A stretch of DNA of 32,000 nt, taken from NCBI RefSeq assembly GCF_013372265.1, contig NZ_CP054051.1, positions 972,587 through 1,004,586 of the forward strand, given 5' to 3'. Positions 4,527 through 32,000 of this stretch are shown in pieces; position 1 is the stretch's first letter; every line of letters starts with the position of its first letter. The notes beneath the pieces were generated by a model. That model made no database searches and was not told where the DNA came from. It saw only the letters and a program-made list of their open reading frames with translations. Origin of the DNA: Aliarcobacter cibarius (lineage in GTDB: Bacteria; Campylobacterota; Campylobacteria; Campylobacterales; Arcobacteraceae). A program made the translations under genes and the position numbers.

Positions 4527-4604
4527 CGGCACTTTCTTTATAAAAGACTTATAGACACTTTTATTAAAACCGATACCTCAGTTGACACCTCTAGTGATTG
4601 ACTT

Positions 4605-4961
4605 TTATGTGCTTAATACAGATAAAATAGCCAAAAATCCGATTATTGCAGCCGTAATACTTAAAATTAGTACCATTCCTGCTAGCATGTCTTTTATTTT
4701 ACCAATTTTTTCATGTAATTCAGGGTGTAAATAGTCAATTAAAGCTTCAATTGCAGAATTTAACAATTCTGAAGCAATAATCAATCCTATACATAAAATT
4801 ATCAAAGCCCACCAAAAAATGGAAATTTTAAAATATGAGAATAAGCATATTACTATTAGAGCTGAAATTAAATGTCTTTGCATATTATGTTCATTTTTAG
4901 TAGCATAAACAATTCCATTAAATGCAAATTTTAGTTTTTTCCATATTGATTGATTTTTCAT
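4605..4961 (-). CDS. dgkA: Diacylglycerol kinase / undecaprenol kinase family (DgkA, 3 TM)
   Basis: 118 aa. It has an N-terminal amphipathic KKLKFAFNGIVYATKNEHNMQRH, then three TM segments and the SELLNSAIEALIDY motif (E. coli DgkA: ELLNSAIEAVVD). Confidence 0.85.
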   Translation of the reverse strand: MKNQSIWKKLKFAFNGIVYATKNEHNMQRHLISALIVICLFSYFKISIFWWALIILCIGLIIASELLNSAIEALIDYLHPELHEKIGKIKDMLAGMVLILSITAAIIGFLAILSVLST

Positions 4962-4966
4962 AATTT

Positions 4967-7901: not shown

Positions 7902-7905
7902 AAGA

Positions 7906-13823: not shown

Positions 13824-13860
13824 AGATTTTCCTTTTTAATTTTGGTAAGTTTAATCTTTG

Positions 13861-13892
13861 AATATGAATTCTTAATGAACTAAATATGAATT
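13861..13892. promoter_or_regulatory. Direct repeat AATATGAATT x2, 22-bp phasing, in divergent promoter region
   Basis: Copies at 13861-13870 and 13883-13892, 38-70 bp upstream of the operon start codon (13823). This geometry suits an OmpR-type regulator, but no binding data exist. Confidence 0.3.
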
Positions 13893-13910
13893 TTTGTTCA
13901 TAAAAGAGTT

Positions 13911-13943
13911 AAATCTTAATGTTTGAATAACTATTAAGATTTC
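13911..13943. promoter_or_regulatory. 10-bp perfect inverted repeat AAATCTTAAT-N13-ATTAAGATTT (candidate operator)
   Basis: Read directly. It sits 60-90 bp upstream of the NOX-like gene start (14004) in the 180-bp divergent intergenic region. Confidence 0.3.
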
Positions 13944-14003
13944 ATTTAAGTGCAAATGTTATTATTTTAAATATAATAAATTTATAACTTTATTGGGAAT
14001 AAG

Positions 14004-15338: not shown

Positions 15339-15441
15339 TTTATAGAATAAATTTAAATTGTAAAGAAATTGTCAACAAATCTTACAGTGAAAATTTAAGT
15401 TGTTTTTTTAGACTTCCAAAAATAAAAAATGGAGTCACAAA

Positions 15442-15939
15442 ATGGGTTTAAATATTGATTTAAAAGTTATAAGAGTTGGTCTTTTAATAACTTTGTTTAC
15501 GTTAATTTTTGGTACAGGTTTAGGAATTGTATTTGGAGCAAAAGAGGAAGTATTTAAAAATTATATTTCTGAAAATATTCAAGCAAACCCTACTGTTCAT
15601 GACGACAAAAGTAAAGATAAAATTTGGAGATATGTTCAAAGAGCGCACTTCCATTCAAGTGGTATTGCTGCATATTCTTTAGCTTTGTTATTAATTATTT
15701 TAGTATCAAAAATGAAAGATAGTATGAAGTCTTTTAGTGCGACAATGATTGGTGTTGGTACTTTATACTCATTTGCATGGTATTTAATGTTCTATTTAGC
15801 TCCACTTATTGGAAGAGATGCTGCAAAAAATCACTTTTTAACAGAGTCTATTGTTTATATCAGTACGGCTGCTTTTGTAATAGGATTGTTTATGATAATT
15901 GCTAACGTATTTTTTAATATGTTTAGTAATGAAGATTAA
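15442..15939 (+). CDS. Hypothetical 4-TM membrane protein
   Basis: 165 aa. GGAG RBS 7 nt upstream. Contains RAHFHS at a TM boundary. No family recognised. Confidence 0.65.
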   Translation: MGLNIDLKVIRVGLLITLFTLIFGTGLGIVFGAKEEVFKNYISENIQANPTVHDDKSKDKIWRYVQRAHFHSSGIAAYSLALLLIILVSKMKDSMKSFSATMIGVGTLYSFAWYLMFYLAPLIGRDAAKNHFLTESIVYISTAAFVIGLFMIIANVFFNMFSNED

Positions 15940-15956
15940 AATCTTATAATTAAAAG

Positions 15957-15987
15957 TTAGTATATAGCTATTTGGGCTATATACTAA
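15957..15987 (+). terminator. Stem-loop terminator candidate
   Basis: TTAGTATATAGC-tatttgg-GCTATATACTAA is a perfect 12-bp stem, 18 nt after the stop codon, followed by an A/T-rich tract. Confidence 0.6.
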
Positions 15988-16089
15988 TTAAAATTTCTCA
16001 CAAAATAATCCTTCCCTATCACATCAATAAGTACAAAATCATATTTTAAATAGAGTAAAATTAGAAAATAATTTTTTAATAGGAAAAAT

Positions 16090-16536
16090 ATGAAATCAAT
16101 AATATTTGTTTGTCTTGGAAATATTTGTCGTTCTCCACTTGCAAAAGGAGTTGCTGAAAATTATATTAAAAATAATAACTTAAATCTTCTTGTTGATTCA
16201 GCTGGAACAAGTAAAGAACATCAAGGAGAAATTCCATGTGAGAACTCTATAAAAGTTGCTAGAGATAATAACATTGATATATCAAAATATAGAGCTAAAC
16301 AATTTTTAAAAAGTGATATAGATAAATTTGATTTAGTCGTTGCATTGGATAGTAATAACTACTATAATTTAAAAAATATGGGATGCAAAAACTTAGTAAA
16401 ATTGGGAGATTTTGGTTTTGGTGGGAAAGATGTTCCAGACCCATACTATTTTAATGGTTTTGATGGCTTTATAGAAGTTTTTAATATGGTAGAAAAAAGT
16501 GTAAAGAATCTACTTTTATCCCTAGAAAATAAATAA
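16090..16536 (+). CDS. Low-molecular-weight protein-tyrosine phosphatase
   Basis: P-loop VCLGNICRSP (CX5R-S) at residues 8-15 and the general-acid loop DVPDPYY near the C-terminus. Confidence 0.9.
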   Translation: MKSIIFVCLGNICRSPLAKGVAENYIKNNNLNLLVDSAGTSKEHQGEIPCENSIKVARDNNIDISKYRAKQFLKSDIDKFDLVVALDSNNYYNLKNMGCKNLVKLGDFGFGGKDVPDPYYFNGFDGFIEVFNMVEKSVKNLLLSLENK

Positions 16537-16563
16537 CTGTAATCTTACAAATAACAGTTTTTA
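16535..16563 (+). terminator. Weak stem-loop plus T-run
   Basis: AACTGT-N13-ACAGTT followed by TTTT, overlapping the stop codon of the phosphatase gene. The stem is short. Confidence 0.3.
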
Positions 16564-16646
16564 AATAACATTTTATAGTTACCAAAAAATATTTTTTTCT
16601 ACTACAATACTTTTATTGCAAATATAAAAATATAGGAGGGTAAATT

Positions 16647-17093
16647 GTGCATATATTAGAACAAACTAGTTTAATAGATTGTACAGTTGAAGAGTTATTT
16701 AACTTTCATCTAGATACTAATAATATTAAATTAATTACCCCAAAACATACAAAAGTAGAACTTCTTAATTATGAAGACAAAACATATGAAGGTAAGTTAG
16801 TAAAGTTAAAAACTACAAGAGCTTTCATACCAATATATTGGATAGTAAAAATAGATAAGTTACAATATCCAAATTTATTAGTAGATGTAGCTCTTAAATC
16901 ACCATTTGCTTATTGGGAACATAGTCATATATTTACACAAAAAGAAACTAAGTGTGAATTAAAAGATGTTATTAAATTTGAGTTACCATTTGGAATATTT
17001 GGAAAAATATTGGCACCTTTGGTTAAAAAAGATATTAAAAATATGTTTGAATATAGACATTTTCAAACAAAGAAATATTTTGCTGAAAAGTAG
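16647..17093 (+). CDS. SRPBCC-superfamily (START/cyclase-like, COG4276-type) small protein
   Basis: 148 aa. GTG start behind a strong AGGAGGG RBS. The blocks PFAYWEHSHIF, DVIKFELPFGIFGKIL and FEYRHFQTKKYF match my recollection of this family. Confidence 0.65.
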   Translation: MHILEQTSLIDCTVEELFNFHLDTNNIKLITPKHTKVELLNYEDKTYEGKLVKLKTTRAFIPIYWIVKIDKLQYPNLLVDVALKSPFAYWEHSHIFTQKETKCELKDVIKFELPFGIFGKILAPLVKKDIKNMFEYRHFQTKKYFAEK

Positions 17094-17104
17094 AAAGGTT
17101 GTTT

Positions 17105-17641
17105 ATGAAAATTATATTAAGTGCGTTGTTTTTTATTACATTTTTATTTGGAGAAAATAGTATGAGTATATATGATATTGAAGTAAAAGATATAAATGGT
17201 AAAGTTGTAAGCATGTCAAAATATAAAAACAAAGTTATGCTTATTGTAAATGTTGCTAGTAAATGTGGTTTTACTAATCAGTATGAGGGATTAGAAGAGT
17301 TACATAAAAAACATTCAAATAAAGGTTTAGCAGTTTTAGGATTTCCATGTAATCAGTTTTTATCTCAAGAACCAGGAACTGAAGAGCAAATTAAAGAGTT
17401 TTGTTCTTTAACTTATGGTGTTGAGTTTGATATGTTTAGTAAAATTGATGTAAATGGTGAAAATACTCATCCTTTATATAAATTCTTGAAAGAAAATTCA
17501 AAAGGTGTTTTGGGAACAGAAGCTATAAAATGGAATTTTACAAAGTTTTTAGTTGATAAAAATGGTAATGTTGTAAAAAGATATGCTCCAAGTACTACAC
17601 CCAAAGAAATTGAAGCAGATATTATAAATTTATTAAAATAA
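17105..17641 (+). CDS. Glutathione peroxidase family (Cys-type), with signal peptide
   Basis: NVASKCGFT (active-site codon TGT at 17264-17266), LGFPCNQF, WNFTKFLVD. The track ORF starts at TTG 17099, but ATG 17105 sits 6 nt after AAAGG. Confidence 0.92.
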   Translation: MKIILSALFFITFLFGENSMSIYDIEVKDINGKVVSMSKYKNKVMLIVNVASKCGFTNQYEGLEELHKKHSNKGLAVLGFPCNQFLSQEPGTEEQIKEFCSLTYGVEFDMFSKIDVNGENTHPLYKFLKENSKGVLGTEAIKWNFTKFLVDKNGNVVKRYAPSTTPKEIEADIINLLK

Positions 17642-17648
17642 ATTAGAA

Positions 17649-17688
17649 AAATTAACTGTCAAGTATAATTTTATTTGACAGTTAATTT
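17649..17688 (+). terminator. Stem-loop terminator candidate (14-bp perfect stem)
   Basis: AAATTAACTGTCAA-N12-TTGACAGTTAATTT, 8 nt after the peroxidase stop codon. Confidence 0.6.
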
Positions 17689-17735
17689 AATAAAAATGTA
17701 ACTTTTTTGTTATTATTCTAGAGTATAATTTTGTT

Positions 17736-19112
17736 ATGAAAGAAAAAGTATATGTATTAGATACAAATATCATCTTACAAAATCTTCAAAATCTCTACAA
17801 AATATCAGACAATAAAACTAACCACATTGTTATACCTGAAACTGTACTTCTTGAACTAGAGGATAAAAAGAAGTTAGTTAATGAATTGGGTTACTATTCA
17901 AGAGAGTTTGCAAGATTATTAGCAAAGATGAAAATAAAAGAGGTTGATTATAAAACTGGATTTAAAGTTGTAAAACTTTATGATGAAGAACTAAATCTTG
18001 ATATTGTCTCAAAAGATAAGTATGAAACGCAAATTGAACAAATACATATTTCTGAATCAAATGATAAAAGAATTATCGAAGTAGCTTCTATTGCTCAAGA
18101 CTACTACAAAGGTTGTAAAACTATTTTTCTATCTTTAGATGTTTATGCTAGAACTTTTGCATTATTTAAAGGAATTAAAACAGAAACTTTACACGATGAT
18201 AAATCAACTGTTCCAAAATTTAATTTTGTAAAAAGTCTAAAAATAGATTCTTCAAAATTCAATAGTTTAGAGAATAAAGACATCTCATCTATAGATGAAA
18301 ATCATGAAATTGAGAATTTTTCATACTCTTTTGAAAGTGATGATGGAAATGTAGAATATGCAATCATTACAAATGGTAAAATCGATATTTTAAAAGAGAC
18401 AGATTTTAAAGCTTTAAATGTTAAACCTGTAAATTTAAAACAAAAACTTTTTACCAAAGCAATTTTAAGTGATATGTACGATTTACTTGTAATTGATGCA
18501 AAAGCTGGAAGCGGAAAAACTTTGATGTCCATTGTTAGTGCTATGAGATTGATTGATTTAGGATTATATGACAAAATTGTATATGTTAGAAATTCTATTG
18601 AATCATTGGATAAAGGTGCTGAGGTTGGATTTTTAGCAGGAAATGATGAAAAATTTAGAATTTATAATATGGCTTTATATGATACATTAGAATTTATTGC
18701 TAAAAAACATTTAAAAAAGAGCGAAAATAGAGAAAAACAAGAGTCAATAACTTCAAAGATTGAAGAGTTAAAAGCTAAATATTGTATGGAGACTTTATGG
18801 CCTGGAGAAGCAAGAGGACGAACTTTAAGTAGTTCAATTGTAATTATGGATGAGTGGCAAAATAGTAGTGAAAAAACTACTCAATTGATTCTTTCAAGAT
18901 TAGATGAGAGTTGTATGGCTATAATTATTGGTTCAAATAGACAAATAGACAATTTATATTTAAATAAATATAATAATGGTTTAACAACTCTTTTAAAACA
19001 GACTTCACAAACTCATAGTGAACTTAAAATGTTTGCAATAGAGCTTGAAAAAGCGGTTCGTGGTAAGTTTGCAGAGTTTACAGAAAGAATTTTTGAAAAC
19101 AAAAATCAATAA
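17736..19112 (+). CDS. PhoH2/YlaK-type protein: N-terminal PIN nuclease domain fused to PhoH-like ATPase
   Basis: PIN start KVYVLDTNIIL..IPETVLLELE..NDKRII. PhoH domain Walker A DAKAGSGKT, Walker B IVIMDEWQN, and a C-terminal RGKF block. Confidence 0.88.
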   Translation: MKEKVYVLDTNIILQNLQNLYKISDNKTNHIVIPETVLLELEDKKKLVNELGYYSREFARLLAKMKIKEVDYKTGFKVVKLYDEELNLDIVSKDKYETQIEQIHISESNDKRIIEVASIAQDYYKGCKTIFLSLDVYARTFALFKGIKTETLHDDKSTVPKFNFVKSLKIDSSKFNSLENKDISSIDENHEIENFSYSFESDDGNVEYAIITNGKIDILKETDFKALNVKPVNLKQKLFTKAILSDMYDLLVIDAKAGSGKTLMSIVSAMRLIDLGLYDKIVYVRNSIESLDKGAEVGFLAGNDEKFRIYNMALYDTLEFIAKKHLKKSENREKQESITSKIEELKAKYCMETLWPGEARGRTLSSSIVIMDEWQNSSEKTTQLILSRLDESCMAIIIGSNRQIDNLYLNKYNNGLTTLLKQTSQTHSELKMFAIELEKAVRGKFAEFTERIFENKNQ

Positions 19113-20799
19113 AGGATTAAATATACAAAATAGACTTATAAATGATACTATTTACAATCACATTGAATATACAAAACTTGAAGATAAAATTCTTCAAACA
19201 AAGATTGTAAATAGATTACAATTTATCACTCAAAATGCGCTAGCATATTTTTCATATCCATCAATAACTACAAAAAGATTCATTCATAGTTTAGGAACTA
19301 TGCATTTAAGTTCATTTTTGTTTAAAAATGCTCTTTTAAATGCTGATAAAAAAACAAAAAATAATTTCTTATCAAGTTTAAAAAACACAATAGTTGCAAT
19401 AATTATAGAAGAGAATTTAAAACTTACTTTTGATGATATGGATTATTTTGATAATAAAGCATTGTATCAATTTACAATACCAACAAAATCAAAATCTCAA
19501 AGAGCAACTTATACTATTTTTTTACAAACTATAAGAATAGTTGCTCTGCTTCATGATGTTGGGCATCTTCCATTTTCTCATCAAGTTGAATATGCTTTAA
19601 AAAAAGTTTATCAAAAAATAAAATTAAAAAAAGAAAATAAAGAAGAACTTTTCGAAAAAGAGTTGAGATTTAAAAGTAATTATGAAGAGATTACAAATTA
19701 TGGTAAAGATGTTTTACATGAAGCAATAGGAGAAAATCTTTTAAAGCTACTTTTTGATTATGAGTTAGAGGAGTTGATTTCTAAAGAGTATGAAAAAGAG
19801 TATTTAAAACTGATTAAAAGATTGGCTATTTTGATTTTAGAAGAACAAACTTTTGAAAATTTTGATTTCAAAGTTTTACATAATTTTATAGATAGCACAG
19901 TTGATGCTGATAGATTAGATTATATAAATAGAGATATGCTTGCAAGTGGATATATTACAGGACCAAATGATCATATTAGAATCACAAAACAAGCAGTTTT
20001 AGTAGAAAAAGATTGCGCTTTTTATTTAAGTTTTTATGATATGAGTTTAATTGATATTGAGCATATGTTAGAGATGAGGTTTAATCTTTATAAAAAAGTT
20101 ATTTTTAATCATGGAATTGCAAAAACAGATACTTTACTTGAAACTGTAGTTCAATATTTAGCTAGTAAATATTTTGAAAATGAGAATGAAGAAGAGAAAC
20201 TTTCAAATTCAATTTCTATGCTTTGGAATTTTAAAAATATAAATAAACAAAAAGAGTTAGATACTATTTCAATGCTTGATGAAAATTGGTTAATTTCATT
20301 ATTTAAAAATAGATATTTTGATATAAAAAATAAAGATATTCTATCAAAAGAAGATATGAAATATATGTATTGTTTTGAAGAAGTTTTATTTGGCAAAAGA
20401 AGATTTAGAAGTCCTTGGAAAAACTTAAACGAGTTTTATAAAGTTCTTGATTTTACTACTGTAGAGAGATATAAATTTAGAGAAAGTTTTGGTTATATAA
20501 CTCCAAATAGATTAAACAAACTACAATTTGCCTTAGATAATATTATAAAAAAATATGAAGAAGATGAACTATTTTTTGAGTATCAAATAGTATCTTTCAA
20601 TTTGGGAATTTCAAAAGATTTTTATTTGTATGATGGAGATGAGTTAATAAATATAGATGAAATATCTACTTTAAGAAAAAGGTTAAAATATTCTATGAGA
20701 AATACAGTTCCTTTTTATCTTTATTCAAATAAAAAGACATTATCGCCTGAAATGAAAGTAGATTTAAAAGAAATGTTGTTTGATATATTTGAGAAATAG
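19045..20799 (+). CDS. HD-domain phosphohydrolase, SAMHD1/dNTP-triphosphohydrolase-like, with ~200-aa C-terminal extension (start uncertain)
   Basis: RLQFITQ, HSLGTMHL, ALLHDVGHLPFSHQVE and DADRLDYINRD are the H..HD..D set of the SAMHD1/EF1143-like family. There is no ATG in the first ~80 codons. In-frame TTG 19045, GTG 19060, TTG 19069 and TTG 19093 all overlap the PhoH2 3' end (stop 19110-19112). An AGGA at 19113-19116 precedes only ATA 19123. Confidence 0.8.
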   Translation: MKKRFVVSLQSLQKEFLKTKINKGLNIQNRLINDTIYNHIEYTKLEDKILQTKIVNRLQFITQNALAYFSYPSITTKRFIHSLGTMHLSSFLFKNALLNADKKTKNNFLSSLKNTIVAIIIEENLKLTFDDMDYFDNKALYQFTIPTKSKSQRATYTIFLQTIRIVALLHDVGHLPFSHQVEYALKKVYQKIKLKKENKEELFEKELRFKSNYEEITNYGKDVLHEAIGENLLKLLFDYELEELISKEYEKEYLKLIKRLAILILEEQTFENFDFKVLHNFIDSTVDADRLDYINRDMLASGYITGPNDHIRITKQAVLVEKDCAFYLSFYDMSLIDIEHMLEMRFNLYKKVIFNHGIAKTDTLLETVVQYLASKYFENENEEEKLSNSISMLWNFKNINKQKELDTISMLDENWLISLFKNRYFDIKNKDILSKEDMKYMYCFEEVLFGKRRFRSPWKNLNEFYKVLDFTTVERYKFRESFGYITPNRLNKLQFALDNIIKKYEEDELFFEYQIVSFNLGISKDFYLYDGDELINIDEISTLRKRLKYSMRNTVPFYLYSNKKTLSPEMKVDLKEMLFDIFEK

Positions 20800-20866
20800 T
20801 TCTTTTTGGAATTTCTCTTTTAAAATCTATTTGATATAATATTTTAAGTAATTTATAGGATAGAAA

Positions 20867-21685
20867 ATGAAAGATTTCTTCTCGATGATATCTTTGCTTT
20901 TTAGACCTTTTTTTGGAGGAACTTTAGAAGAAGGAATAAAAGCTTATGATGAGTTTGATTATATAAAAGCTTTTAAAATTTTTCAGAAATTTGCAAGTCA
21001 AAATAATTCAACTGCACAATACTATTTAGGAAAAATGTATGAAAAAGCTGATTTTGTTGATAAAGATATAAGTCAAGCTATTTGTTATTTCCAAGAAGCT
21101 TCAAAAAATAATCATGCAGATGCAGCATTTGCTCTAGGAATGATTTATCATAGAGGAAAAGATGTACCAAAAGATGATGATTTAGCAAAAGATTATTTTG
21201 ATTTAGCAATTGTAAATGGAAATATTGAAGCAAAAAAAATAATGAAATTATTTGAAGAAAGTGAAGTAATTTACTCTTTAAGAGATGGAATAGAACTTTT
21301 CAAAAAAGAGGAGTTTTTAAAAGCTTTAGATATTTTTAAAGCTCTTGCGAAGAAAAATGATACAGATGCGCTATTTTATATTGGATATATTTGTGAATAT
21401 TTTGATTTTGAAGGTAAACCTGATAATATTGAACCTTTTGAACTCTTTTTAATATCTGCAAATAACGGGAATAGAAATGCTCAATATGAGATGGGACTTC
21501 AAGCTTATTATAAAGATAAATATGAAGAAGCTGTTTCTTGGTATGAAAAAGCTGCAAAACAGGGCTTAAAAGATGCTCAAAAGAATTTATCGACTATGTA
21601 TGAGTTAGGTTATGGTGTTAAAAAAGATTTAGAAATGGCTAAATTTTGGATGAAAGAATTTTTGAATAATAAAGAGGAAGTATGA
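20867..21685 (+). CDS. Sel1-like repeat (SLR/TPR-type, Hcp-like) protein
   Basis: 272 aa with repeated A..YYLGKMYEKA...D...A..YF..A blocks (AQYYLGKMY, AAFALGMIYHRGKDVPKD, AQKNLSTMYELGYGVKKD). Confidence 0.85.
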   Translation: MKDFFSMISLLFRPFFGGTLEEGIKAYDEFDYIKAFKIFQKFASQNNSTAQYYLGKMYEKADFVDKDISQAICYFQEASKNNHADAAFALGMIYHRGKDVPKDDDLAKDYFDLAIVNGNIEAKKIMKLFEESEVIYSLRDGIELFKKEEFLKALDIFKALAKKNDTDALFYIGYICEYFDFEGKPDNIEPFELFLISANNGNRNAQYEMGLQAYYKDKYEEAVSWYEKAAKQGLKDAQKNLSTMYELGYGVKKDLEMAKFWMKEFLNNKEEV

Positions 21686-22185
21686 AAAAAATAGTTTTAT
21701 TTTTTATTTTAGTTAAAAGTTTGTACGCAGAAAATTTTAATGATGTAACAAAAGCGTTAGAAAAAGATGATTATAAAAATGCTTATACAATTTTAAAAAG
21801 TTTAGAAAATAAACAAGATAAAAATGTGTTATTTGAGTTAGCAAGACTATATGATTATGGTTGTTGGGTTCGTCAAAATATTAGTGAAGCTGTAAAGTAT
21901 TATAAAAAAGCTGCGGCTTTAGGACATGTTGAAGCAAAGTATAATTTGGGAATTATCTATTATTTAGGTGAAGATAATTTAAAAAATTCAGATGGTAAAA
22001 TTACAGCTTGTAACAAATATATGGATGAAAAAGATGATATAAAACCTAGCTTAGCTGTTTTACAAGCTGATGATAAAGAGGCTTTAAATTGGTTCTTAAA
22101 AGCAAATAAAGAAGGACATAGTGAAGCAAAAAATTCAATTAATCTTATTTGTGATAGTAAACCAGAAATTTGTAAGCAAAAATAG
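21682..22185 (+). CDS. Secreted Sel1-like repeat protein
   Basis: Signal peptide MKKIVLFFILVKSLYA. SLR blocks LFELARLYDYGCWVRQNISEAVKYYKKAAALGHVEAKYNLGIIY. ATGA overlap with the upstream SLR gene. Confidence 0.85.
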   Translation: MKKIVLFFILVKSLYAENFNDVTKALEKDDYKNAYTILKSLENKQDKNVLFELARLYDYGCWVRQNISEAVKYYKKAAALGHVEAKYNLGIIYYLGEDNLKNSDGKITACNKYMDEKDDIKPSLAVLQADDKEALNWFLKANKEGHSEAKNSINLICDSKPEICKQK

Positions 22186-22277
22186 ATTTTTGCTTAACAA
22201 ATTATAATAGGTGAACTACTTCTTGGAATTACTTCTCCAATAATTTTTGCATATCCAAAACTAAGTTCTTCAAGTTC
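22101..22277. repeat. Direct repeat copy 1 (176/177 bp, identical to 25671-25847)
   Basis: My base-by-base comparison of the printed sequence found no mismatch. It covers the last 85 nt of the SLR gene, the 8-bp spacer and a duplicate of the last 84 nt of selD. Confidence 0.95.
22194..22277 (-). pseudogene. Duplicated 3' fragment of selD (last 28 codons, no 5' part)
   Basis: The minus strand reads ELEELSFGYAKIIGEVIPRSSSPIIIC*, identical to the true selD end at 25764-25847. Upstream it runs into the element terminus, with an in-frame stop. Confidence 0.9.
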
Positions 22278-22420
22278 CTGACTTCATCACTTTTTCATAA
22301 TTATTAAAAAAATGGTCTCAAAAACTCGAATTCATGGGCCTCTAATTTTAAAATTGGGTGACCCACGATATAATTTTATATGTTTATACGTAAAATAAGA
22401 AGTTAAAATTGTAGTATTAT

Positions 22421-23881
22421 CCCGGATTTTGCAATAGGATATTCTTGGTATAAATTAATCTTATAATAATTACTAAATTTCTGGCACAAATAATCTAAAA
22501 TATCTTATTTATATTTATATGGCTTGGTGACTTGTTTTATATTTTCAAATAATCCATCCATCCAAGATCTTCTTTTCCTTGGAAGTGATATATTTAGTAC
22601 TTTTTCATTCTCATGATTTGTCATCCAAGATCCTAATGCAAAGCAATAGGATCTTAATGTTGAAAGTTGCATATTTGTTTGTAAAATTTGATGTTTAAAA
22701 AGTGCCATAATATTGTATGCCACCAGCATAAATCTATGAGCAGCTTCAGTTGCATAGAATTTATCAAGTGCAAAATTATCTAATCCAAAATCATATTTTA
22801 ATTCTTTGATTCTATTTTCTGCATCTGCTCTTGTATTATAAATATTATATACTTGATCAAGAGGAAGAGTAAGATTAGTAACATAAGCACTATATCTATA
22901 TGTAGGTTCATCAAATAGTAATTTACCTCCACTATTTGGATAGTTTTCAACTTTTTTTCTAACTAAAATATATCTTCTTGTATTATTAGTATTATTTGGT
23001 TTGAAATATAGTTCTGCTACATCTAAACCTTTAGTAATAGATGACCAATCTTCAATTGAGCCTATTTCATATTTAAAATTTTCATAGAACTTTACTGCTA
23101 TTACATAATTTAGATCTCTTTTTTCAAACCAAGATAAAAATTTATCACTATAAAATCCACTATCAGCTCTTACTAGTCCAACAGATTTATTTTTTAATAC
23201 TACATCAAATGTCTCTTCCAAAAATGCTTTATAATTATTTGTATCTGAAGTATTACCTGCTCTTAGCCATGCATTTGCAACCATCTTTGTTTGATCTACA
23301 AATGCCATTAAAGGATGATGAGATTTTCTTCCTTTTTTCTTTGGATTATATCCAATAGCACTTCTTTCTTGATTTCCATATCTTGTAATAACTGTTGAAT
23401 CTAAATCTATTGTTAGCTTTCCAACTTTAAACTGATCCATAAACCATTGTTGTAATTGTGGAAATATTTGTGAGTTTTTCTCAATATCAAATTTATAGAA
23501 AAATCTATTGTATGTACTACTTGAAGGAAGTTTATCTAGTTCAAATATTGATTGCAGTGTTGTATCATAACGAAGCCAATCTGTATGAGAAAATCTATTA
23601 CCACCTGTAATAATACTAAGCCAAAAACCTAATATTAAAATAGTTGGATCATATCCTCTATTTGAATTTGGTTGAGGAATATTTAGTTCATTTAAATAAG
23701 GTAATATTTGTAAGTGATCTATAAAATCTTTTAATAATTTCATACCTCCCCAAGGAGTTACTTTTTTATCTGAATAAGCAATTTTTAACTCACCCATTTG
23801 GTGATCCTTATAAATGAAGTTGTAGAGACTATTATATGCCAGTTTGTTTTAGATTATCATTTCTCTATTGAAAAATTTGGG
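22421..23881 (-). mobile_element. IS1380-family insertion sequence, copy A (1461 bp)
   Basis: IRs are CCCGGATTTTGCAATAG (22421-22437) and CTATTGAAAAATTTGGG (23865-23881), matching 14 of 17 positions. IRs start with CC, as in the IS1380 family. Flanked by the 5-bp direct repeat ATTAT (22416-22420 / 23882-23886). Confidence 0.85.
22505..23797 (-). CDS. IS1380-family DDE transposase (copy A)
   Basis: 430 aa. LTIDLDSTVITRYGNQERSAIGYNPKKKGRKSHHPLMAF, VRADSGFYS and YNTRADAENRIKELKYDFG parallel ISEcp1 ITIDIDSSVINVEGHQEGASKGYNPKK, RMDSGYF and YEKRGNAENYIKEAKYD. Confidence 0.88.
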   Translation of the reverse strand: MGELKIAYSDKKVTPWGGMKLLKDFIDHLQILPYLNELNIPQPNSNRGYDPTILILGFWLSIITGGNRFSHTDWLRYDTTLQSIFELDKLPSSSTYNRFFYKFDIEKNSQIFPQLQQWFMDQFKVGKLTIDLDSTVITRYGNQERSAIGYNPKKKGRKSHHPLMAFVDQTKMVANAWLRAGNTSDTNNYKAFLEETFDVVLKNKSVGLVRADSGFYSDKFLSWFEKRDLNYVIAVKFYENFKYEIGSIEDWSSITKGLDVAELYFKPNNTNNTRRYILVRKKVENYPNSGGKLLFDEPTYRYSAYVTNLTLPLDQVYNIYNTRADAENRIKELKYDFGLDNFALDKFYATEAAHRFMLVAYNIMALFKHQILQTNMQLSTLRSYCFALGSWMTNHENEKVLNISLPRKRRSWMDGLFENIKQVTKPYKYK

Positions 23882-23924
23882 ATTATTATTTAAATCTCAT
23901 AAAATAAATCAAAAATATAATTAT

Positions 23925-25394
23925 CCCAGATTATGCAATAGAAGAAGCAATAAAATATTTATTTATAACTAAAAGTTATAGATTTTCTCTGTAATTTTTA
24001 AGTATTTTTATTGAAAATTATCTATGTATACTTAAAGGGAATTTGACTTTGTTTTACGTTTTCAAATAAACCATTCATCCAAGTTCTTCTTTTTTGTGGA
24101 AGTGATATTTTTAGTACTTTTTGATTTGAATGTTCTGTTATCCAAGATCCTAATGCAAAGCAATAGGATCGTAGTGTTGAAAGCATCATATTTGAATTTA
24201 CTACTTCATGTTTAAAAAGTGCCATAATATTGTATGCCATCATAATAAATCTAAAAGAGGCTTCTGTGGCATAAAAATCTTTTAAGCAGAAGTTATCAGC
24301 TCCAAAATCATATTTAAGTTCTTTTATTCTATTTTCACAATCAGCTCTTGTGTTATATATATTATAAATTTGATCAACTGGCAGTTCAATATTAGTAACA
24401 TAAGCACTATATCTATATATAGGTTCATCGAATAGAAGTTTACCACCTGATTTTGGGTATTCTTCACTTAATTTTCTAACAATTATATATCTTCTTTCAC
24501 TTCCGTTATCAGGTTTAAATCTTAGGCTTGCTACATCAAGTCCTTTTGTGATTTTAATCCACTTAGTTATATTTCCAATGGTGTATTTTATATTTTCATA
24601 AAATTTTACAGCCACAATATAATTAATACCTCTTTTTTCAAACCATTCTAAGAATTCTTGTGAATAAAATCCACTATCTGCTCTTACAAGTCCAACTTTT
24701 TTATCTTTTAAGCATATATCAAATGTCTCATTTAAAAATGCGTCATAATTATTAAGTGAACTAGTATTACCACTTCTCATCCATGTATTTGCTATCATTT
24801 TTGTTTGATCTATAAATGCAATAATTGGATGATGTGAGTTTCTACCAGGTTTTTTAGGGTTATAACCTTTCTTAGCTCCTTCTTGTTCACCATATCTTGT
24901 TATTACTGTTGAATCTAAATCAATTGTTAGTGGTCCTACATCTAGTTGTGAAAGGAATTTTTGTTGTAATATTGGAAATATTTCAGAATTCTTTTCAATA
25001 TTAAATTTATGAAAAAATCTGCTATATGTTGATTGACTTGGCAATTTATCTATTTCAAATATTGTTTGTAATGTTGTATCATATCTTAACCAATCGGCAT
25101 GGATATATCTACTTGCTCCTGTAAATATAGCTAACCAAAATCCTTGAATAATATTTATTGGATCATATGCTCTATTTGAAAATCCAATAGGTAAATTTAC
25201 ACTTTTTAAATCTTCAATTACTCTTGTTTTATCTATAAAATTTTTTAATAATTTCATCCCACCAAATGGTGTAACTTTTTTATCAGAATACTCAATTTTT
25301 AATTCACCCATTTGGTGTTCCTTATGAATGCTTATGAAGTGTTATTTTATGGTACTTTATTTTAGATTCTTATTTAGCTATTGCATAATGCGGG
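23925..25394 (-). mobile_element. IS1380-family insertion sequence, copy B (1470 bp)
   Basis: IRs are CCCAGATTATGCAATAG (23925-23941) and CTATTGCATAATGCGGG (25378-25394), matching 15 of 17 positions. Also flanked by ATTAT (23920-23924 / 25395-25399). Confidence 0.85.
24022..25311 (-). CDS. IS1380-family DDE transposase (copy B, diverged paralogue of copy A)
   Basis: 429 aa. Same motif set (LTIDLDSTVITRYGEQEGAKKGYNPKKPGRNSHHPIIAF, VRADSGFYS, YNTRADCENRIKELKYDFG). By eye it is about two-thirds to three-quarters identical to copy A. Confidence 0.88.
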   Translation of the reverse strand: MGELKIEYSDKKVTPFGGMKLLKNFIDKTRVIEDLKSVNLPIGFSNRAYDPINIIQGFWLAIFTGASRYIHADWLRYDTTLQTIFEIDKLPSQSTYSRFFHKFNIEKNSEIFPILQQKFLSQLDVGPLTIDLDSTVITRYGEQEGAKKGYNPKKPGRNSHHPIIAFIDQTKMIANTWMRSGNTSSLNNYDAFLNETFDICLKDKKVGLVRADSGFYSQEFLEWFEKRGINYIVAVKFYENIKYTIGNITKWIKITKGLDVASLRFKPDNGSERRYIIVRKLSEEYPKSGGKLLFDEPIYRYSAYVTNIELPVDQIYNIYNTRADCENRIKELKYDFGADNFCLKDFYATEASFRFIMMAYNIMALFKHEVVNSNMMLSTLRSYCFALGSWITEHSNQKVLKISLPQKRRTWMNGLFENVKQSQIPFKYT

Positions 25395-25670
25395 ATTATT
25401 TAACTACTTAAAATACAATATTTATCGAATTATTGTATAAAAGCCTTAAGTTGATTCAATAATTTCTTATAAAGTTTATAAAAAATGTAAAATAAGTATA
25501 GAAAAAATTTATGACAAAAATTTGTTAGTAAAAAAGCATTTGAACATTTTAAACAATATACAGAATAGAATAAATTAATCAAAAGAAAGAATATAAATTT
25601 TGAATTTTTACAACTAAAAATACAAAATATTATAGATTTTTAATTTGGGTGACCCATTGATGAAGTCAGG

Positions 25671-25755
25671 AGCAAATAAAGAAGGACATAGTGAAGCAAA
25701 AAATTCAATTAATCTTATTTGTGATAGTAAACCAGAAATTTGTAAGCAAAAATAG
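25671..25755 (+). pseudogene. Duplicated 3' fragment of the secreted SLR gene (last 28 codons)
   Basis: Identical to 22101-22185 including the TAG stop (25753-25755). There is no 5' part; upstream is the element terminus. Confidence 0.9.
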
Positions 25756-25847
25756 ATTTTTGCTTAACAAATTATAATAGGTGAACTACTTCTTGGAATT
25801 ACTTCTCCAATAATTTTTGCATATCCAAAACTAAGTTCTTCAAGTTC
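25671..25847. repeat. Direct repeat copy 2 (identical to 22101-22277)
   Basis: See copy 1. This copy contains the functional 3' end of selD and a dead duplicate of the SLR gene 3' end. Confidence 0.95.
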
Positions 25848-26801
25848 TTTTATATACTCTTTTGCATCATCTTTATTCATTGATATTAAAAGTCCACCAG
25901 ATGTTTGAGCATCACAAAGTAAAGCTTTATAATACTCTTCTAGATTTTTTAAATATAAAACTTTGTCTTCACAAAATTTCATATTTTTCTTTGTTCCTCC
26001 TGGAATTACACCATCTTTTGCAAAAGTTATAGCTTCTTTTACAAGTGGTATATCATTGCAAGATAAACTAAAAGATATTTCTTCATTTATACATTCAAAA
26101 GCATGTCCTAAAAGACCAAATCCAGTAATATCCGTACAAGAATTTATTCTATATTTTTTCATAATCTTTGATGGCAAATAGTTTAAACTAGCCATAATTT
26201 TTGCGCACTCTTTAATAACAGAAATATCTGTTAAATCTCTTTTTATAGCCGTAGTTAAAACACCCATTCCAAGAGGTTTTGTAAGAACTAACACATCACC
26301 AACTTTTGCACTATTATTTCTAATAACATCGTTTGGATGTATTGTTCCTGTAACACTTAGTCCATAGTACATTTCAGGTGATTCAATAGTATGTCCACCA
26401 AGAAGTGCTCCACCGCACTCTTTGATTTTTTCAAAACCACCTCTTAATATTTCTCCTAGTGCATCTTTTGATAGATTTTTTTTGTCGAAACCTACAATAT
26501 TTAAAGCAGTTTTTACTTCAGCCCCCATTGCAAATACATCACTAAGTGAATTTGCAGCAGCTATTTGCCCATAAATATAGGGGTCATCAACAACAGGTGT
26601 TATAAAATCCAAAGTTTGAACTATTGCTAAATCATCACTTAGTCTAAAAACTCCAGCATCATCACTTGTATCAAATCCTATTAAAACTTGTTCATTTTTG
26701 CCATTTAAGTTACAAAGAGTTTGTTTTAGGTCCGCCGAACCCATCTTTGCTGCTCAACCAGCTGCTTGAACAAATTTAGTTAGTTTATATTCGTTGTTCA
26801 T
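25764..26801 (-). CDS. selD: Selenide, water dikinase (selenophosphate synthetase) SelD, selenocysteine-containing (TGA at 26756-26754 = Sec16)
   Basis: The track ORF starts at ATG 26744. However, the frame continues upstream through a single TGA to ATG 26801-26799, giving MNNEYKLTKFVQAAG-U-AAKMGSADLKQTL. This aligns with E. coli SelD [23 protein letters not shown], with the UGA at the catalytic Cys position. The rest (DDAGVF, LDFITPVVDDPYIYGQIAAANSLSDVFAMG, GGHTI, DITGFGLLGH, DAQTSGGLL) is canonical SelD. Confidence 0.9.
26728..26742 (-). promoter_or_regulatory. Putative bacterial SECIS hairpin for the selD UGA
   Basis: The minus strand reads UGA-GCAGCAAAGAU-GGGUUCGGCGGACCU. This gives a 5-6 bp GC-rich stem (GGUUC/GGACC with one G:U) starting 11-12 nt after the UGA. 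It is the only GC-rich patch in this part of the gene. The fold was done by hand only. Confidence 0.5.
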
Positions 26802-27018
26802 TTATACTTTCTTTCTTTAAAATGACACTATTATACAAGTAGAAGAGTAAAATTTTAGTTAAGAATAGTAAATTATTTTTTACTATTTAAGCATTTACTT
26901 ATAGATTATTTATTAAGATTGTTTTAATTTAAGTTCACAGACCATAGTTATGGTATGACATAAAGAAAGCTCTTTATATCTTCAATTCGAACTAATCAAT
27001 TATAAAGAATAAATTACG

Positions 27019-28110
27019 ATGAAAAGAAGAACATTTTTTAAAACGACTTTTACACTATCAAGTGCTGCATTTTTATATCCAAGTATTGCACTAGCAACTG
27101 AATCAAACCCTTTTGGAATAACTAAAACTCCTAGAAAATTTAAAGTTTCAAATAAATATGAATTTGAACAAACAAAAGAGATTACTCAACTTTGGATACC
27201 ACTTCCAAAAGATGAAGATTATCAAAAAGTTGTAGGTTTTTCATATAATGGAAATTATAGTGAGGCAGAAATTGTAAAAAATCCATACAATACAAGAGTA
27301 TTATATGTAAAATGGAATAATGCAAATGTAAAACCAACTTTAGACCTTGATTTTGCAGTTGTTATGCAAGAAAGATCAACAGATTTTTCTAAAGCTACAT
27401 CAAGTACAATTTATCCTAGTGAAGTAGTAGAATTTTTAAAAGGAACAGAACATATTCCTGTAACTCCTAAACTTACAAAATATGTAAATGAAATAGTAAA
27501 AGGTGCTAACACTTCACTTGAAAAAGCAAAAGCTATTTATAATTGGACAGTATCAACAATGTATAGAGATGAAAGTGTTATTGGTTGTGGTGTTGGTGAT
27601 GCAAAAAAATCAATTGAAGAGAAAATTTATGGTGGAAAATGTACAGATATAAGTTCTGTATTTGTTTGTCTTTTAAGAAATGCAAAAATTCCTGCGCGAG
27701 AGACTTTTGGAATTAGAGTAGGGCAATCAAAAATCTCAAATGCTTGTGGTAAAGCAGATGAGAAAGGTTTTGCAAATATAACAGGTGCTCAACATTGTAG
27801 AGCAGAATTTTACATAGATGGAATTGGTTGGGTTCCTTGTGATCCTGCTGATGTTACAAAAGTAAAATTAGCTGAAAAATTACCAAATGATGATAAAAAA
27901 CTTCAAAATGTTAAAGATTACTTCTTTGGTTCTTGGGAGATGAATTGGGTAGGGTTTAATAGTGCTAGAGATTTTATACTAGAGCCAAAACCAACTCAAT
28001 ATCCTTTAAATATGTTAGGTTATCCTTATGCTGAAGTTGGTGAGGATGCAAAAGATTATTATAATCCTAAAACATTTACATATAGTTATACATCTCAAGA
28101 GATTTTATGA
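27019..28110 (+). CDS. Tat-exported transglutaminase-like (Cys-His-Asp) protein
   Basis: Twin-arginine signal MKRRTFFKTTFTLSSAAFLYPSIALA. Transglutaminase core GGKCTDISSVFVCLLRNAKIPAR, AQHCRAEFY and GWVPCDPAD. Confidence 0.8.
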   Translation: MKRRTFFKTTFTLSSAAFLYPSIALATESNPFGITKTPRKFKVSNKYEFEQTKEITQLWIPLPKDEDYQKVVGFSYNGNYSEAEIVKNPYNTRVLYVKWNNANVKPTLDLDFAVVMQERSTDFSKATSSTIYPSEVVEFLKGTEHIPVTPKLTKYVNEIVKGANTSLEKAKAIYNWTVSTMYRDESVIGCGVGDAKKSIEEKIYGGKCTDISSVFVCLLRNAKIPARETFGIRVGQSKISNACGKADEKGFANITGAQHCRAEFYIDGIGWVPCDPADVTKVKLAEKLPNDDKKLQNVKDYFFGSWEMNWVGFNSARDFILEPKPTQYPLNMLGYPYAEVGEDAKDYYNPKTFTYSYTSQEIL

Positions 28111-28433
28111 AACAAAATAAATTTGTGATAATTGGTGCAGTTTTTACTGCACTATTATCAACTCTTTGTTGTTTACCAGCTTTTATTTTTTTATTTTTTG
28201 GTATTTCAAGTGGGGTACTTAGTTTCTTTACAACTTTGGAGTTTACAAGAATTCCTCTTGCTATTTTAACTATAATATTTTTTGTATTTGCAATTTTAAA
28301 TTTTAGAAAAAAAATAGTTTGCAAATGTAGTAAAAAAGATAGAATAAAACAATCTGTTTATTTTAGTGCATTTCTTGTTTTTATAATATTTCTATTATTT
28401 TATCCTGAAATTTTACCTTTATTTATGGAGTGA
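28107..28433 (+). CDS. MerT-like small membrane protein (3 TM, CC pair in TM1)
   Basis: 108 aa. LSTLCCLPAF matches the MerT TM1 CCLxP motif. A second Cys pair, VCKCS, follows TM2. ATGA overlap with the upstream gene. Confidence 0.65.
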   Translation: MKQNKFVIIGAVFTALLSTLCCLPAFIFLFFGISSGVLSFFTTLEFTRIPLAILTIIFFVFAILNFRKKIVCKCSKKDRIKQSVYFSAFLVFIIFLLFYPEILPLFME

Positions 28434-28437
28434 TTTT

Positions 28438-28710
28438 ATGAGATTCTTTTTAATACTTTTTATATTTTTTAATTTTGCTTTTTCTTCAAATGTATCTATT
28501 TTTAAAGTAGAAGGTATGCATTGTCCTCTGTGTACAACGGCTGTTAAAAAAGCGATTTCAAAACTAGAGGGAGTTGAAAAAGTAAGTGTTAGACTTAATA
28601 CAAAAGAGGTAAGTGTTATTTATAATGAAAAAGTTAAGATAGAAGATATCCTAGCTGCTATAAAAACGACATCATATGAGGGTGTTGAAATCTCTACAAA
28701 AAGTGAGTAA
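28438..28710 (+). CDS. Periplasmic heavy-metal-associated (HMA) domain protein, MerP-like
   Basis: Signal peptide MRFFLILFIFFNFAFS followed by VEGMHCPLCTTAVKKAISKLEGV (GMxCxxC ferredoxin-like fold). Confidence 0.8.
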   Translation: MRFFLILFIFFNFAFSSNVSIFKVEGMHCPLCTTAVKKAISKLEGVEKVSVRLNTKEVSVIYNEKVKIEDILAAIKTTSYEGVEISTKSE

Positions 28711-28711
28711 C

Positions 28712-29377
28712 TTAGATAGTTTCTAAGCTACTTTCATTAAAAATATAAGTCTTATGAGCAGTTTTTGTAAGGATATTTTTATCTGCTAAATCTTTAAATA
28801 GCTTGATTAATGTTGGTTTTGAAATAGAAAATTGTTCCATTATTTCGCTATATGAAGCAAAAAATTGATTTTTTTCATCTAAATTATTGAAAATATATTT
28901 TACTATTTCTACTTGTTTTCCATCACTTATAGCACCAATTGTTTTTATTATATTTTGGTTTTTTCTTAGCTCTTTTTCTTGAACTTTTGGAAGAAGAATA
29001 TCATGTAAAGTTAATAGAAGTTCTTGGATATTTATAGGCTTTACAATATAATTTTCAACTTTTAATTTTATTGCTTCAAGTAAATAATCTGTTTCTGTAT
29101 GAGCTGTAGTAAGAATAGCTGGGATTTCAATATCTTTATTTTTTAAATATTTTAAGAAATTTATACCATTTTCATTTTCAAGTAGAATATCACTTATTAT
29201 TACATCGATATTTTTTTCTAAAATTATATTCATAGCTTCAATAGTTGTTTTTACACTATACAATTCACCTACGAAATCTTCCAAAATATCACTTGTATGT
29301 CTTAATAAATTTTCATCATCTTCAAGGTACAAAACATTAAAGTTTTTTAAAATATCAAATTTTTTACTCATCCTCAT
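28712..29377 (-). CDS. Response regulator (receiver + C-terminal HTH-like domain)
   Basis: Receiver motifs [21 protein letters not shown] and LTTAHTE..VKP. The C-terminal ~70 aa are HTH-like ([19 protein letters not shown]). The stop is 1 nt from the convergent MerP-like stop. Confidence 0.85.
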
Positions 29378-30938
29378 CCTTTAGTGGTATTTTTATTACA
29401 AAAGATGTACAAGAAAAAGTTTCATCATCTTTTATTTTATATTTTATATTTTTGCAGCTAATTTGTCCCTTTATATGTTTTTCAATAATTTGTTTTGACA
29501 TATAAAGACCTATTCCTGTTCCTGCACTTTTATATTTTGTTGTGTAGTAAGGTTCAAAAATTTTAGGCATAACATCAGCTGGAATTCCACCACCGTTATC
29601 TATTATATTAACAAATAAAAAATCTTTTTTACTATTCACAACTATTTTTATTATTCTATCATTTTTGTCAACATTGCTAATTAAAGCATCTTTTGAGTTA
29701 CTTATAATATTAAGAAAAACATGTGAGAGCTCATTGTAATAACTAAAAATTTCAATATTCTTTTTGATATTTAATTCTACTTTTATATGCTCTTTATTTA
29801 AGAAATATTTTGAAAGTTCTATTGAGTGTTCGATACAATCTTCTATAAAAAACTTTTTTTTAGCTTTACTTGGATCAAAAAAGTTTTTAAAATCATCAAG
29901 AGTATTTGACATATTTTGTGCTAAAAGTAGTGCATCTTCAGTTTTTTGCTGTACAAATTCACTTGTTAGTTTTCCAAATTGCATTTTAACTTGGAAGCTT
30001 TGAATAATCATACATAAAGAGCCTAAAGGCTGTCTCCATTGATGAGCAATATTATTTAACATCTCTCCTAAGCTTGCAAATCTCGCTTGTTGGAACATAA
30101 TAATATCTTTCTTTCTATTTTTAGCAACTTCTTGAGCAATTTTTAATTCTAAACTATTATTTAACTCTTTTAACTCTTTTGTTTTTTCTTCAACATTTTT
30201 TTCTTGTAAATAATGTATTTGTTTAAAATGCTTTGTAATAAATAAAGACAAAATTATTGAAAAAAAGAATACTATAAAAATGGATATGAATGAGAAAATA
30301 GTAATTATATTAAATACTTTATCAGTATCTCTTTTCTCAGTTATGGCAACTGATAAATCATAGTTCATCAAACTTGCTAAATGTACAGAAATAGAGTTTA
30401 TTTCAAATTTTAATTTTTTAAAATACTCTTCATCTTTTTCATTTCTAATATCTTTTAAAAGTAAATTTATACTTAACATTTTTGAATTAATATTCTTTAT
30501 TATTTCATCTTTTAAAACTTTATTTTCATATAAATTATTTGGATTTAAAACAAATTTCTTAATCCAATTTACAATAAAAAATCTATTTTCTAAACTACTA
30601 TTTTCTTTATATAAATGCCAGTTTTTATCTATGATTTCACTTGCTAGTTTTAATACATCTTTTGCTTGAACAAAATTTAATCTTTTATTCTCAAAATTAT
30701 CTAAAGTGTCTTGAATATTTATCTTATATGAGTCTTTTATATGTTCAAGTTCTATTAAACCTTTTGTTCTTTTTTCAAATAAAATATCAAAATCATTTTT
30801 TAGAGTAAATATTGATATTTGTGACAAAACTATTATACAAAGCATACCACCAGAAATTATAAATATTAAAAATGAAGTTTTATAACTGAATTTCAGATTG
30901 TCAAAATATTTTAGAGTTGTAATTAATAAATTTTTCAT
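29364..30938 (-). CDS. Sensor histidine kinase (2 TM, ~190-aa periplasmic domain)
   Basis: H-box [16 protein letters not shown]-box [13 protein letters not shown]1 IDNGGGIP, G2 GTGIGLYMS. It overlaps the RR gene by 14 nt and the binding-protein gene by 4 nt. Confidence 0.9.
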
Positions 30939-32000
30939 TTTAACTCTTTGAAACTATCATTTAAATATTCAAAAAGATATGTTTGATTCAGTAATCTCTT
31001 ATTTTTATAATCAATTTTTATTTCATATAAAAGTTCTTTAGGTGTATTTTTTAATGCTTCCAAAAAGTTGTCTTTGGTTAGGTTGTCATTTGTTCTTTTT
31101 ATTGCATCAACCAAAACTTTTGAAGCCAAAAAACTTTCAAAAGATAAAAATCCAATATTAGAATTTGGTGAATATTTTTTCATAATTTCTTGATACTCTT
31201 GCACAATTTTTAAATTTTTATCATCATAATTTGGAACAACTTGTGAAAAAATTATATTTTCAGTAGATGTTTTTGTAGTTTTTAAATCATTTATAATCGA
31301 ATTTGCATCACTAAAAGATACATTACAAAAAATAGAATCTTTTAAAATATCATCATTTTTTGCTTTTTGAATAAAAAAGCTATTTGCACCATAAGCACCT
31401 ATTAAGATTATTGCTTCAGGATTTGATAGTTTTATCTCATTAAAAGCATGTTCTATTGCTAAGGTATTTCTTTTGTAACTACCTATTGCGACCAAATTTA
31501 GATTTTGTTTTTTTATTATTTCTAAACTAGATATATAGCCTTCTTCTCCATAGTCATCATTTTGATAAAATATTGCAATATTTTCTATATTTTTATTCTT
31601 TAAGTAATCTATTAAATGTTCTAACTCTTGTTTGTATGAGGCCCTAAAATTAATCAAAGTTGATAAGCTTTCATCTTGTAAAAAATTTGCTCCTGAAAAT
31701 GGAGAAAAAAATAAAATATTTTCATCATAAATTGTTGGAAGTATTCTTTTTATTGTTGGTGTTCCAACTATTCCAAAGAAAGCAAAGATATTCTCTTTTT
31801 TTAGTTTTTCTACATTTTCATAAGTTAAATCAGGTTCATATTTATCATCAAGAGTTACAAATTCAATTTTTTTTCCATTTAGCAAATTATTATCATTTGT
31901 ATAAGAAAAATAACTTTTTGTAGATTCTAATACAGCATTTCCCCAAGGTTGCATTAATCCTGTTAAAGGCATTGATGAAGCAATTTGTATATTTTTTAAA
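30935..32000 (-). CDS. Periplasmic ligand-binding protein, LivK/Peripla_BP_6-like (5' end beyond window)
   Basis: The track starts at Met 31972, but the frame is open to position 32000 (..[21 protein letters not shown], the typical PLTG..A..G block of type I PBPs). Alternating beta-alpha pattern, with [14 protein letters not shown]. Confidence 0.75.

Follow-up and report, generated by a model that had tools for sequence, protein, structure and literature searches.

The window analysed here is a 32,000-nt stretch of Aliarcobacter cibarius DNA (contig NZ_CP054051.1, positions 972,587 to 1,004,586). In it, two convergent genes, one encoding a Sel1-repeat protein and the other selenide, water dikinase (selD), are separated by a 3,394-bp insert that lies between the two copies of a long direct repeat. 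A repeat comparison of the window placed these copies at 22101-22277 and 25671-25847 (repeat family D3), with 100% identity over 177 nt, a match far beyond chance. The repeat comprises the final 85 nt of the Sel1-repeat gene, an 8-nt spacer (22186-22193) and the final 84 nt of selD. The insert begins and ends with perfect 13-bp inverted repeats. Their sequence, CCTGACTTCATCA, has only two matches in the window when up to two mismatches are allowed, at 22277-22289 on the forward strand and at 25658-25670 on the reverse strand, and both directly adjoin the repeat. Base 22277 can be assigned either to the direct repeat or to the inverted repeat, so that with the boundaries CCTGAC...GTCAGG the direct repeat measures 176 bp plus one ambiguous base. 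The first-pass annotation, made from the sequence alone, had described an identical 177-nt repeat, its division into 85, 8 and 84 nt, the abutting 13-bp termini and the single ambiguous base, and the repeat comparison and ORF (open reading frame) coordinates agree with it on each of these points.

The insert is itself composite. It holds two insertion sequences (ISs) of the IS1380 family, labelled here IS1 (1461 bp, 22421-23881, reverse strand) and IS2 (1470 bp, 23925-25394, reverse strand). Both are flanked by the 5-bp ATTAT duplications noted in the first-pass annotation, at 22416-22420 and 23882-23886 for IS1 and at 23920-23924 and 25395-25399 for IS2. Removal of both IS copies, with one ATTAT each, left an AT-rich backbone of 453 bp in which no ORF was found. 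Its left segment (22277-22420, forward strand) opens with the left inverted repeat at 22277-22289 and is 100% identical to positions 1901-1758 of pACIB, a plasmid of A. cibarius H743. This segment contains a TTGGGTGACCCA box (22354-22365), a TATAAT sequence and the remnant of a transposase start, with an ATG at 22380 and a stop at codon 9. A 38-bp segment (23887-23924, forward strand) separates the two IS copies; in the IS-free pACIB copy it runs without a break into the adjoining segments. The right segment (25400-25670, forward strand) carries C-terminal transposase remnants (residues ~442-511), a second TTGGGTGACCCA box (25645-25656) containing the ancestral stop codon, and the right inverted repeat TGATGAAGTCAGG (25658-25670). 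The sequence TGGGTGACCCA occurs at 22355 and at 25646.

The pACIB copy (L085, NZ_CP043858.1, 1537-1901) corresponds to backbone positions 1-365 at 99.5% identity. It is uninterrupted, lacks both IS1380 elements and, by alignment, confirms the reconstruction base for base. Since this backbone exists without either IS1380 element, the 453-bp defective element is the basic mobile unit and the IS1380 insertions are secondary. The IS-free pACIB copy is already deleted, so the deletion and decay of the backbone predate the IS1380 insertions. IS2 was also considered as the maker of the backbone deletion and was rejected, because the deletion junction (at about position 239) does not adjoin the IS2 site (182) and the IS-free pACIB copy already carries the deletion.

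To find relatives of the backbone, genome and metagenome collections were scanned with a pattern covering both of its ends. A contig from activated sludge (L030) carries an element of 1,657 bp that has these 13-bp termini and a single 511-residue ORF, which scores 352.9 bits on the NCBIfam model for IS1634 family transposases (NF033559, cutoff 100). Backbone positions 1-186 are 82% identical to the transposase-start end of this element, and positions 287-453 are 75% identical to the other end. Transposase remnants were recognised in the backbone for residues 1-7, ~40-51, 442-475 and 498-511 (tblastn E = 4e-05), and within the first ~50 codons a multiple alignment shows indels of -4, -10 and -3 in addition to the stop at codon 9. 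Full-length relatives measure 1651-1659 bp with one ORF of 508-511 residues, in keeping with a family length of 1500-2000 bp and a single transposase gene; at 453 bp the window copy falls short of this and retains only remnants of the DDE transposase whose profile its full-length relatives match. Both of its ends are perfect over 13 bp (CCTGACTT...) and fit the published family end consensus C-----YT (PMC2266710). On these alignments the backbone is an IS1634-family element that has lost about 1.2 kb internally and has decayed further, and the most fitting class for the window element is that of a non-autonomous deletion derivative in this family, with two IS1380 passengers. The earlier suggestion of an IS1634/IS1549-type element is thereby upheld.

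A multiple alignment of the relatives shows that the CCTGACTTCRTCR termini and the TTGGGTGACCCA box are conserved at both ends and in the same orientation. The left box lies ~66 nt inside the terminus, just upstream of the TATAAT and the transposase ATG, and the right box is separated from the terminus by 1 nt and includes the transposase stop codon. The box, which is near-palindromic, may be a candidate site for transposase binding or autoregulation.

The state of the locus before insertion was sought with the exact SelD protein together with the neighbouring transglutaminase-like protein. This search returned 20 loci (L001-L010 and L062-L071; a few share contigs). The site is uninterrupted in all of them except L063, including the finished chromosome of A. 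cibarius H743 (CP043857.1, L062). At these empty sites selD and the Sel1-repeat gene converge with 8 nt between them, and the 177-nt sequence is single-copy (L001-L010, L062 and L064-L071), an arrangement that the first-pass annotation had proposed looking for in related strains. In L001-L010, each 300-nt flank agrees with the window at 298-300 positions. Window positions 13449-22277 and 25671-32000 align, at 99.93-99.97% identity over 6-9 kb, with stretches of L062 and L065 that are contiguous and overlap. The window consequently consists of an empty site to which the 3,394-bp insert and another 177-nt target copy have been added; the repeat is therefore a target duplication, made from DNA that was already present at the site. 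For the IS1634 family, target duplication at the window copy thus amounts to 176-177 bp against verified empty sites.

A duplication of this length is uncommon but has precedents in the family. IS1634-family members usually give AT-rich duplications of 5-6 bp (PMC2266710), as does ISGka5, with 6 bp (PMC8024623). For IS1549 and IS1634, variable direct repeats of 8-514 bp have been described, for which no mechanistic model had been proposed as of 2008 (PMC2266710). This published range agrees with the statement in the first-pass annotation that long duplications are known for IS1634/IS1549-type elements.

Contigs encoding related transposases and finished plasmids were fetched, and the direct repeats adjoining the element termini were measured. 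Long repeats were found at seven related elements: 33 bp on a Persicobacter plasmid (Bacteroidota; L088), 51 bp and 103 bp on two metagenome contigs (L043 and L037), 238 bp on the finished chromosome of Arcobacter acticola (L082), where the element also contains a nested IS, 262 bp and 329 bp at different loci of the same IS in Poseidonibacter ostreae isolates (L040 and L039), and 682 bp on the A. cryaerophilus plasmid pCNAC48 (NZ_CP099557.1; L087). In the last case the repeat (1920-2601 and 4337-5018) duplicates most of a Crp/Fnr regulator gene around a more distant IS1634-family element (2602-4336) with the ends CTGAGTTTCTCA. The seven repeats differ in sequence and length. Six are perfect, and the 682-bp repeat matches at 681 of 682 positions. 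Flanking duplications at other copies had been named earlier as the measurement that would separate a property of the element from a one-off recombination product, and none of the copies examined in this clade showed a duplication of 5-6 bp. The 177-bp repeat is thus normal for its part of the IS1634 family. Together, the empty sites and the relatives with 33-682-bp duplications sustain the earlier reading of the structure as a transposition target-site duplication of unusual length.

The long duplication is accordingly a known but unexplained trait of the IS1634 family; the window copy adds a clear further example and does not constitute a new type of element. Since an established family trait explains the structure, no new mechanism is called for. 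Like IS1634 of Mycoplasma mycoides and IS1549 of Mycobacterium smegmatis, the relatives of the window element are ~1.65 kb long with a DDE transposase matching the NCBIfam IS1634 model, and they share short terminal inverted repeats fitting C-----YT and long, variable direct repeats adjoining the ends. They differ from these two elements in their hosts, which are Arcobacteraceae (Campylobacterota) and, for some relatives, Bacteroidota, and in that the repeat on pCNAC48 exceeds the published maximum of 514 bp; the window copy differs further as a 453-bp non-autonomous deletion derivative with two nested IS1380 elements. With typical members such as ISGka5 from Geobacillus the transposase family is shared, whereas the 5-6-bp duplications of that type are not found here. 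In comparison with miniature inverted-repeat transposable elements (MITEs), the window element is likewise short and non-coding, keeps both ends, is found at three sites or more and presumably depends on mobilisation in trans, but it is larger than most MITEs, retains clear transposase pseudogene remnants and has a low copy number as far as seen.

The defective unit, which lacks a transposase and has intact ends, was found at no fewer than three sites: the window, pACIB and a metagenome-assembled genome (MAG) of Aliarcobacter (L022), where a different flank adjoins a 100% identical copy of the backbone's terminal 55 nt. Among these three sites, both ends and a measurable duplication are present only in the window copy. 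The pACIB copy is cut off at backbone position 365, beside another transposase gene (62-1420), and its missing 88 bp were not found within 6-9 kb on either side; being truncated, it yields no duplication length. The occurrence of the defective unit at three or more sites points to movement by a transposase supplied in trans. A possible source exists in the species. A full-length IS1634-family transposase (QKJ26943.1) is recorded in a 2.34-Mb A. cibarius genome that also encodes the transglutaminase-like protein of the window, and L063 carries at 6951-8250 a full-length-type IS1634 element that is 98.4% identical to the L030 element and has the same 13-bp terminus. Neither QKJ26943.1 (P0154) nor the exact IS1 transposase had a match in the contig index searched. 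Shortened relatives were also observed outside Aliarcobacter: a 104-bp miniature derivative in a Bacteroidales MAG (L021, 5661-5764) and 962-bp decayed derivatives in a Saprospiraceae MAG (L023, 7014-7975) and a metagenome contig (L031, 11306-12267), all with nearly the same termini and the subterminal box.

The insertion preference was analysed at 81 distinct IS-flank junctions, read outward from each end. A occupies the first flanking position in 83% of them (against a background of 35%; p = 3e-18) and the third in 65%, and 90% have a purine in the second position. The flanking A is target-derived. Its assignment to the element was tried and rejected, since identical IS copies differ at this base, which also appears in the distal copy of each duplication.

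Taken together, these data suggest the following course of events, which as a whole we consider highly probable. A 453-bp decayed derivative of an IS1634-family element, which had kept both 13-bp terminal inverted repeats and both TTGGGTGACCCA boxes and only fragments of its transposase gene, would have transposed, in one A. cibarius lineage, to the point where the Sel1-repeat gene and selD meet 3' to 3', with the transposase supplied in trans. The geometry suggests that both 3' ends of the transposon were joined to the target, on opposite strands and 176-177 bp apart, each 5' of an A-rich triplet with the consensus A-R-A. Repair synthesis over the long 5' overhangs would then have produced the 177-bp duplication. 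Two different IS1380-family elements would have entered ATTAT sites of the backbone 38 bp apart, either before or after its arrival at selD and each with a normal 5-bp duplication.

Several observations weigh against this account. Around 30 metagenome contigs covering related IS copies (L042-L061 and L072-L081) show no repeat, long or short, except L043, and no flanking repeats were found at L038, L021, L023 and L031. The left junction in the window has the support of a single assembly, and the right junction is seen independently only in L063. Outside the termini, the backbone and the resident full-length relative share only 75-85% identity. Finally, we infer the trans supply and the two widely separated strand transfers, which are not observed chemistry. 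Regarding the contigs without repeats, flanks are swapped around identical IS copies: L043 differs in this way from L045, and L047, L048 and L051 share one flank and differ in the other. Because flanks recur with different partners, the repeat-less metagenome contigs were attributed to chimeric assembly through a multi-copy IS, even though genuine copies without a duplication may possibly exist among them. Most transposase-bearing contigs are ~1.65 kb long and consist of the IS alone, as would be expected from a de Bruijn assembler when a long duplication surrounds a repeat. Weight was therefore given only to isolates and finished replicons and to two self-consistent contigs, and the remaining metagenome contigs were not counted either way. 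At L030 no repeat was detectable next to a left flank of just 62 nt, which makes this copy unusable for duplication length. One end of the same contig (3812-3851) resembles an Illumina adapter (AGATCGGAAGAGCGTCGTGTAGGGAAAGAGTGT...), presumably left untrimmed in the public assembly.

The same geometry could have arisen in other ways. A full-length IS1634-family element might have inserted at the selD site, made the 177-bp duplication and afterwards decayed where it stood, by a deletion of ~1.2 kb, by frameshifts and by the two IS1380 hits. This would involve the same duplication mechanism and would need no mobilisation in trans, and the full-length A. acticola element was indeed disrupted in situ by a nested IS. 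However, the same deleted and frameshifted backbone lies on pACIB (99.5%) and its end at the third site; because it is shared by these sites, the defective form is older than at least two of its three insertions. Moreover, the DNA flanking the selD site matches that of empty-site strains at 99.97%, which leaves little time for indels of -4, -10 and -3 and a stop within ~50 codons, and decay in place is accordingly improbable. The first-pass annotation had also raised a Campbell-type integration, in which a circle carrying the element and a captured 177-bp copy of the locus would enter by homologous or site-specific recombination. At a single locus this would give the same final geometry and a perfect repeat. 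It would, however, require a separate capture for each of seven related elements, which have unrelated repeats of 33-682 bp at unrelated loci; the insert contains no recombinase gene, and the boundaries of the repeat coincide exactly with the inverted termini. This alternative is effectively excluded by the other copies, whose repeats are variable and unrelated.

An assembly artefact, such as a mis-join or a duplicated contig overlap around repeated IS DNA, also has to be weighed, since IS-rich regions are error-prone. The draft assembly L063 (GCA_000522465.1, JABW01000014.1), apparently from the same strain, joins the region to another IS: at ~8251 a single N links the full-length-type IS1634 element with the IS2 end and the junction on the selD side. 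The link was made in assembly across repeats; it is unreliable and does not reflect a real adjacency. Yet the same draft covers window positions 25262-32000 at 99.97% identity, and the right junction in it is identical to that in the window. The geometry of a repeat adjoining the termini recurs in finished replicons of other species, and an artefact would not set the ends of a repeat exactly at the termini of a transposon, so that we regard this explanation as very unlikely. A transposase-independent insertion can be considered as well, because restriction-modification units are inserted with long target duplications in Helicobacter and Campylobacter, among others (Furuta et al. 2010, PMC2853133). 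The host belongs to the same phylum, and the reported duplications range from 46 bp to ~420 bp (PMC2853133). These units share long target duplications with the window element but have no inverted termini and no link to a transposase family, whereas conserved IS1634-family termini are present here and the long-duplication trait follows the IS1634 family across phyla. The probability of such an insertion is negligible. Transposition of the trans-mobilised defective element, with a 177-bp target duplication and IS1380 passengers, thus remains our preferred explanation.

A wider generalisation is more evenly balanced. It holds that a clade of the IS1634 family, extending from Arcobacteraceae to Bacteroidota and recognisable by termini of the CCTGACTTC type and a subterminal GGGTG(A/T)CCC box, may as a whole make target duplications of 30-700 bp as its normal outcome, so that these would be no peculiarity of two elements, with the two ends joined 5' of A-R-A on opposite strands at an essentially unconstrained distance. 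We see roughly equal grounds for accepting and for doubting it. Under this generalisation, the long-duplication property would reside in the transposase-end complex, because the 453-bp defective derivative carries it too. No helical periodicity was seen in the duplication lengths by inspection. If true, the generalisation would provide a tractable system with small ends for the long-open question of how such duplications originate. Independently of it, the present analysis contributes eight clean natural examples (33-682 bp), among them a minimal 453-bp derivative that still yields a long duplication, and extends to new hosts a phenomenon hitherto familiar mainly from two elements. The preference for A-R-A at each joint suggests a guide for experiments. 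Long duplications also make such insertions hard to assemble and easily missed in short-read data.

The nested elements are typical of the IS1380 family in their transposases, in inverted repeats starting with CC and in their 5-bp duplications. The transposase ORFs, of 430 residues in IS1 (22505-23797) and 429 residues in IS2 (24022-25311), score 230.4 and 231.9 bits on NCBIfam NF033539 (230 for IS1; cutoff 180). Both are ordinary passengers and cannot account for the 177-bp repeat, as had been argued at the outset from the short duplications normal for this family. A further early argument, which contrasted the perfect repeat with the divergence of the two inner copies as a sign of recent arrival in one piece, did not hold: at 74.6% identity, IS1 and IS2 are to be classed by sequence as different IS species and not as diverged duplicates, and their difference is no clock. 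Copies 100% identical to IS2 are present in A. cibarius H743 (L012, L013 and L015), flanked by 5-bp duplications of ATTAA or ATTAT, which corresponds to a target preference of ATTAW. In the backbone, two IS1380-family species struck ATTAT sites just 38 bp apart.

The duplication also bears on the neighbouring genes. The Sel1-repeat gene (21682-22185, forward strand; Pfam Sel1) is intact and encodes 167 residues, and the same 167-residue gene is called at the empty sites. The selD gene (25764-26801, reverse strand; TIGR00476, 338 bits) is intact as well. The left repeat copy provides the functional 3' end of the Sel1-repeat gene and the spacer, followed by a dead 84-nt 3' fragment of selD. The right copy contains the 3'-terminal 85 nt of the Sel1-repeat gene as a dead fragment, then the spacer with the predicted terminator and the functional 3' end of selD. 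A hairpin spans both stop codons (22167-22203; -12.7 kcal/mol, z = -5.55; inverted repeat I1), and its second copy at 25737-25773 was duplicated along with the target; it is predicted to be a likely bidirectional terminator. Because the duplicated stretch contains both gene ends and the hairpin, each gene keeps its native 3' end and the likely shared terminator, in line with the intact 3' ends described in the first-pass annotation. A long duplication can thus spare both neighbouring genes and their common terminator. The outcome follows here from a duplication that spans the intergenic point and is not general: at the two P. ostreae loci, gene calls beside the element hint at one gene split into two overlapping parts.

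The selD reading frame contains an in-frame TGA (26754-26756, reverse strand), 16 codons after an upstream ATG (MNNEYKLTKFVQAAG*AAKMGS...). The gene is annotated with 345 residues in H743, compared with 326 residues from simple ORF calling. SelD is probably a selenocysteine-containing protein of 345 residues, whose true start is probably at 26801.

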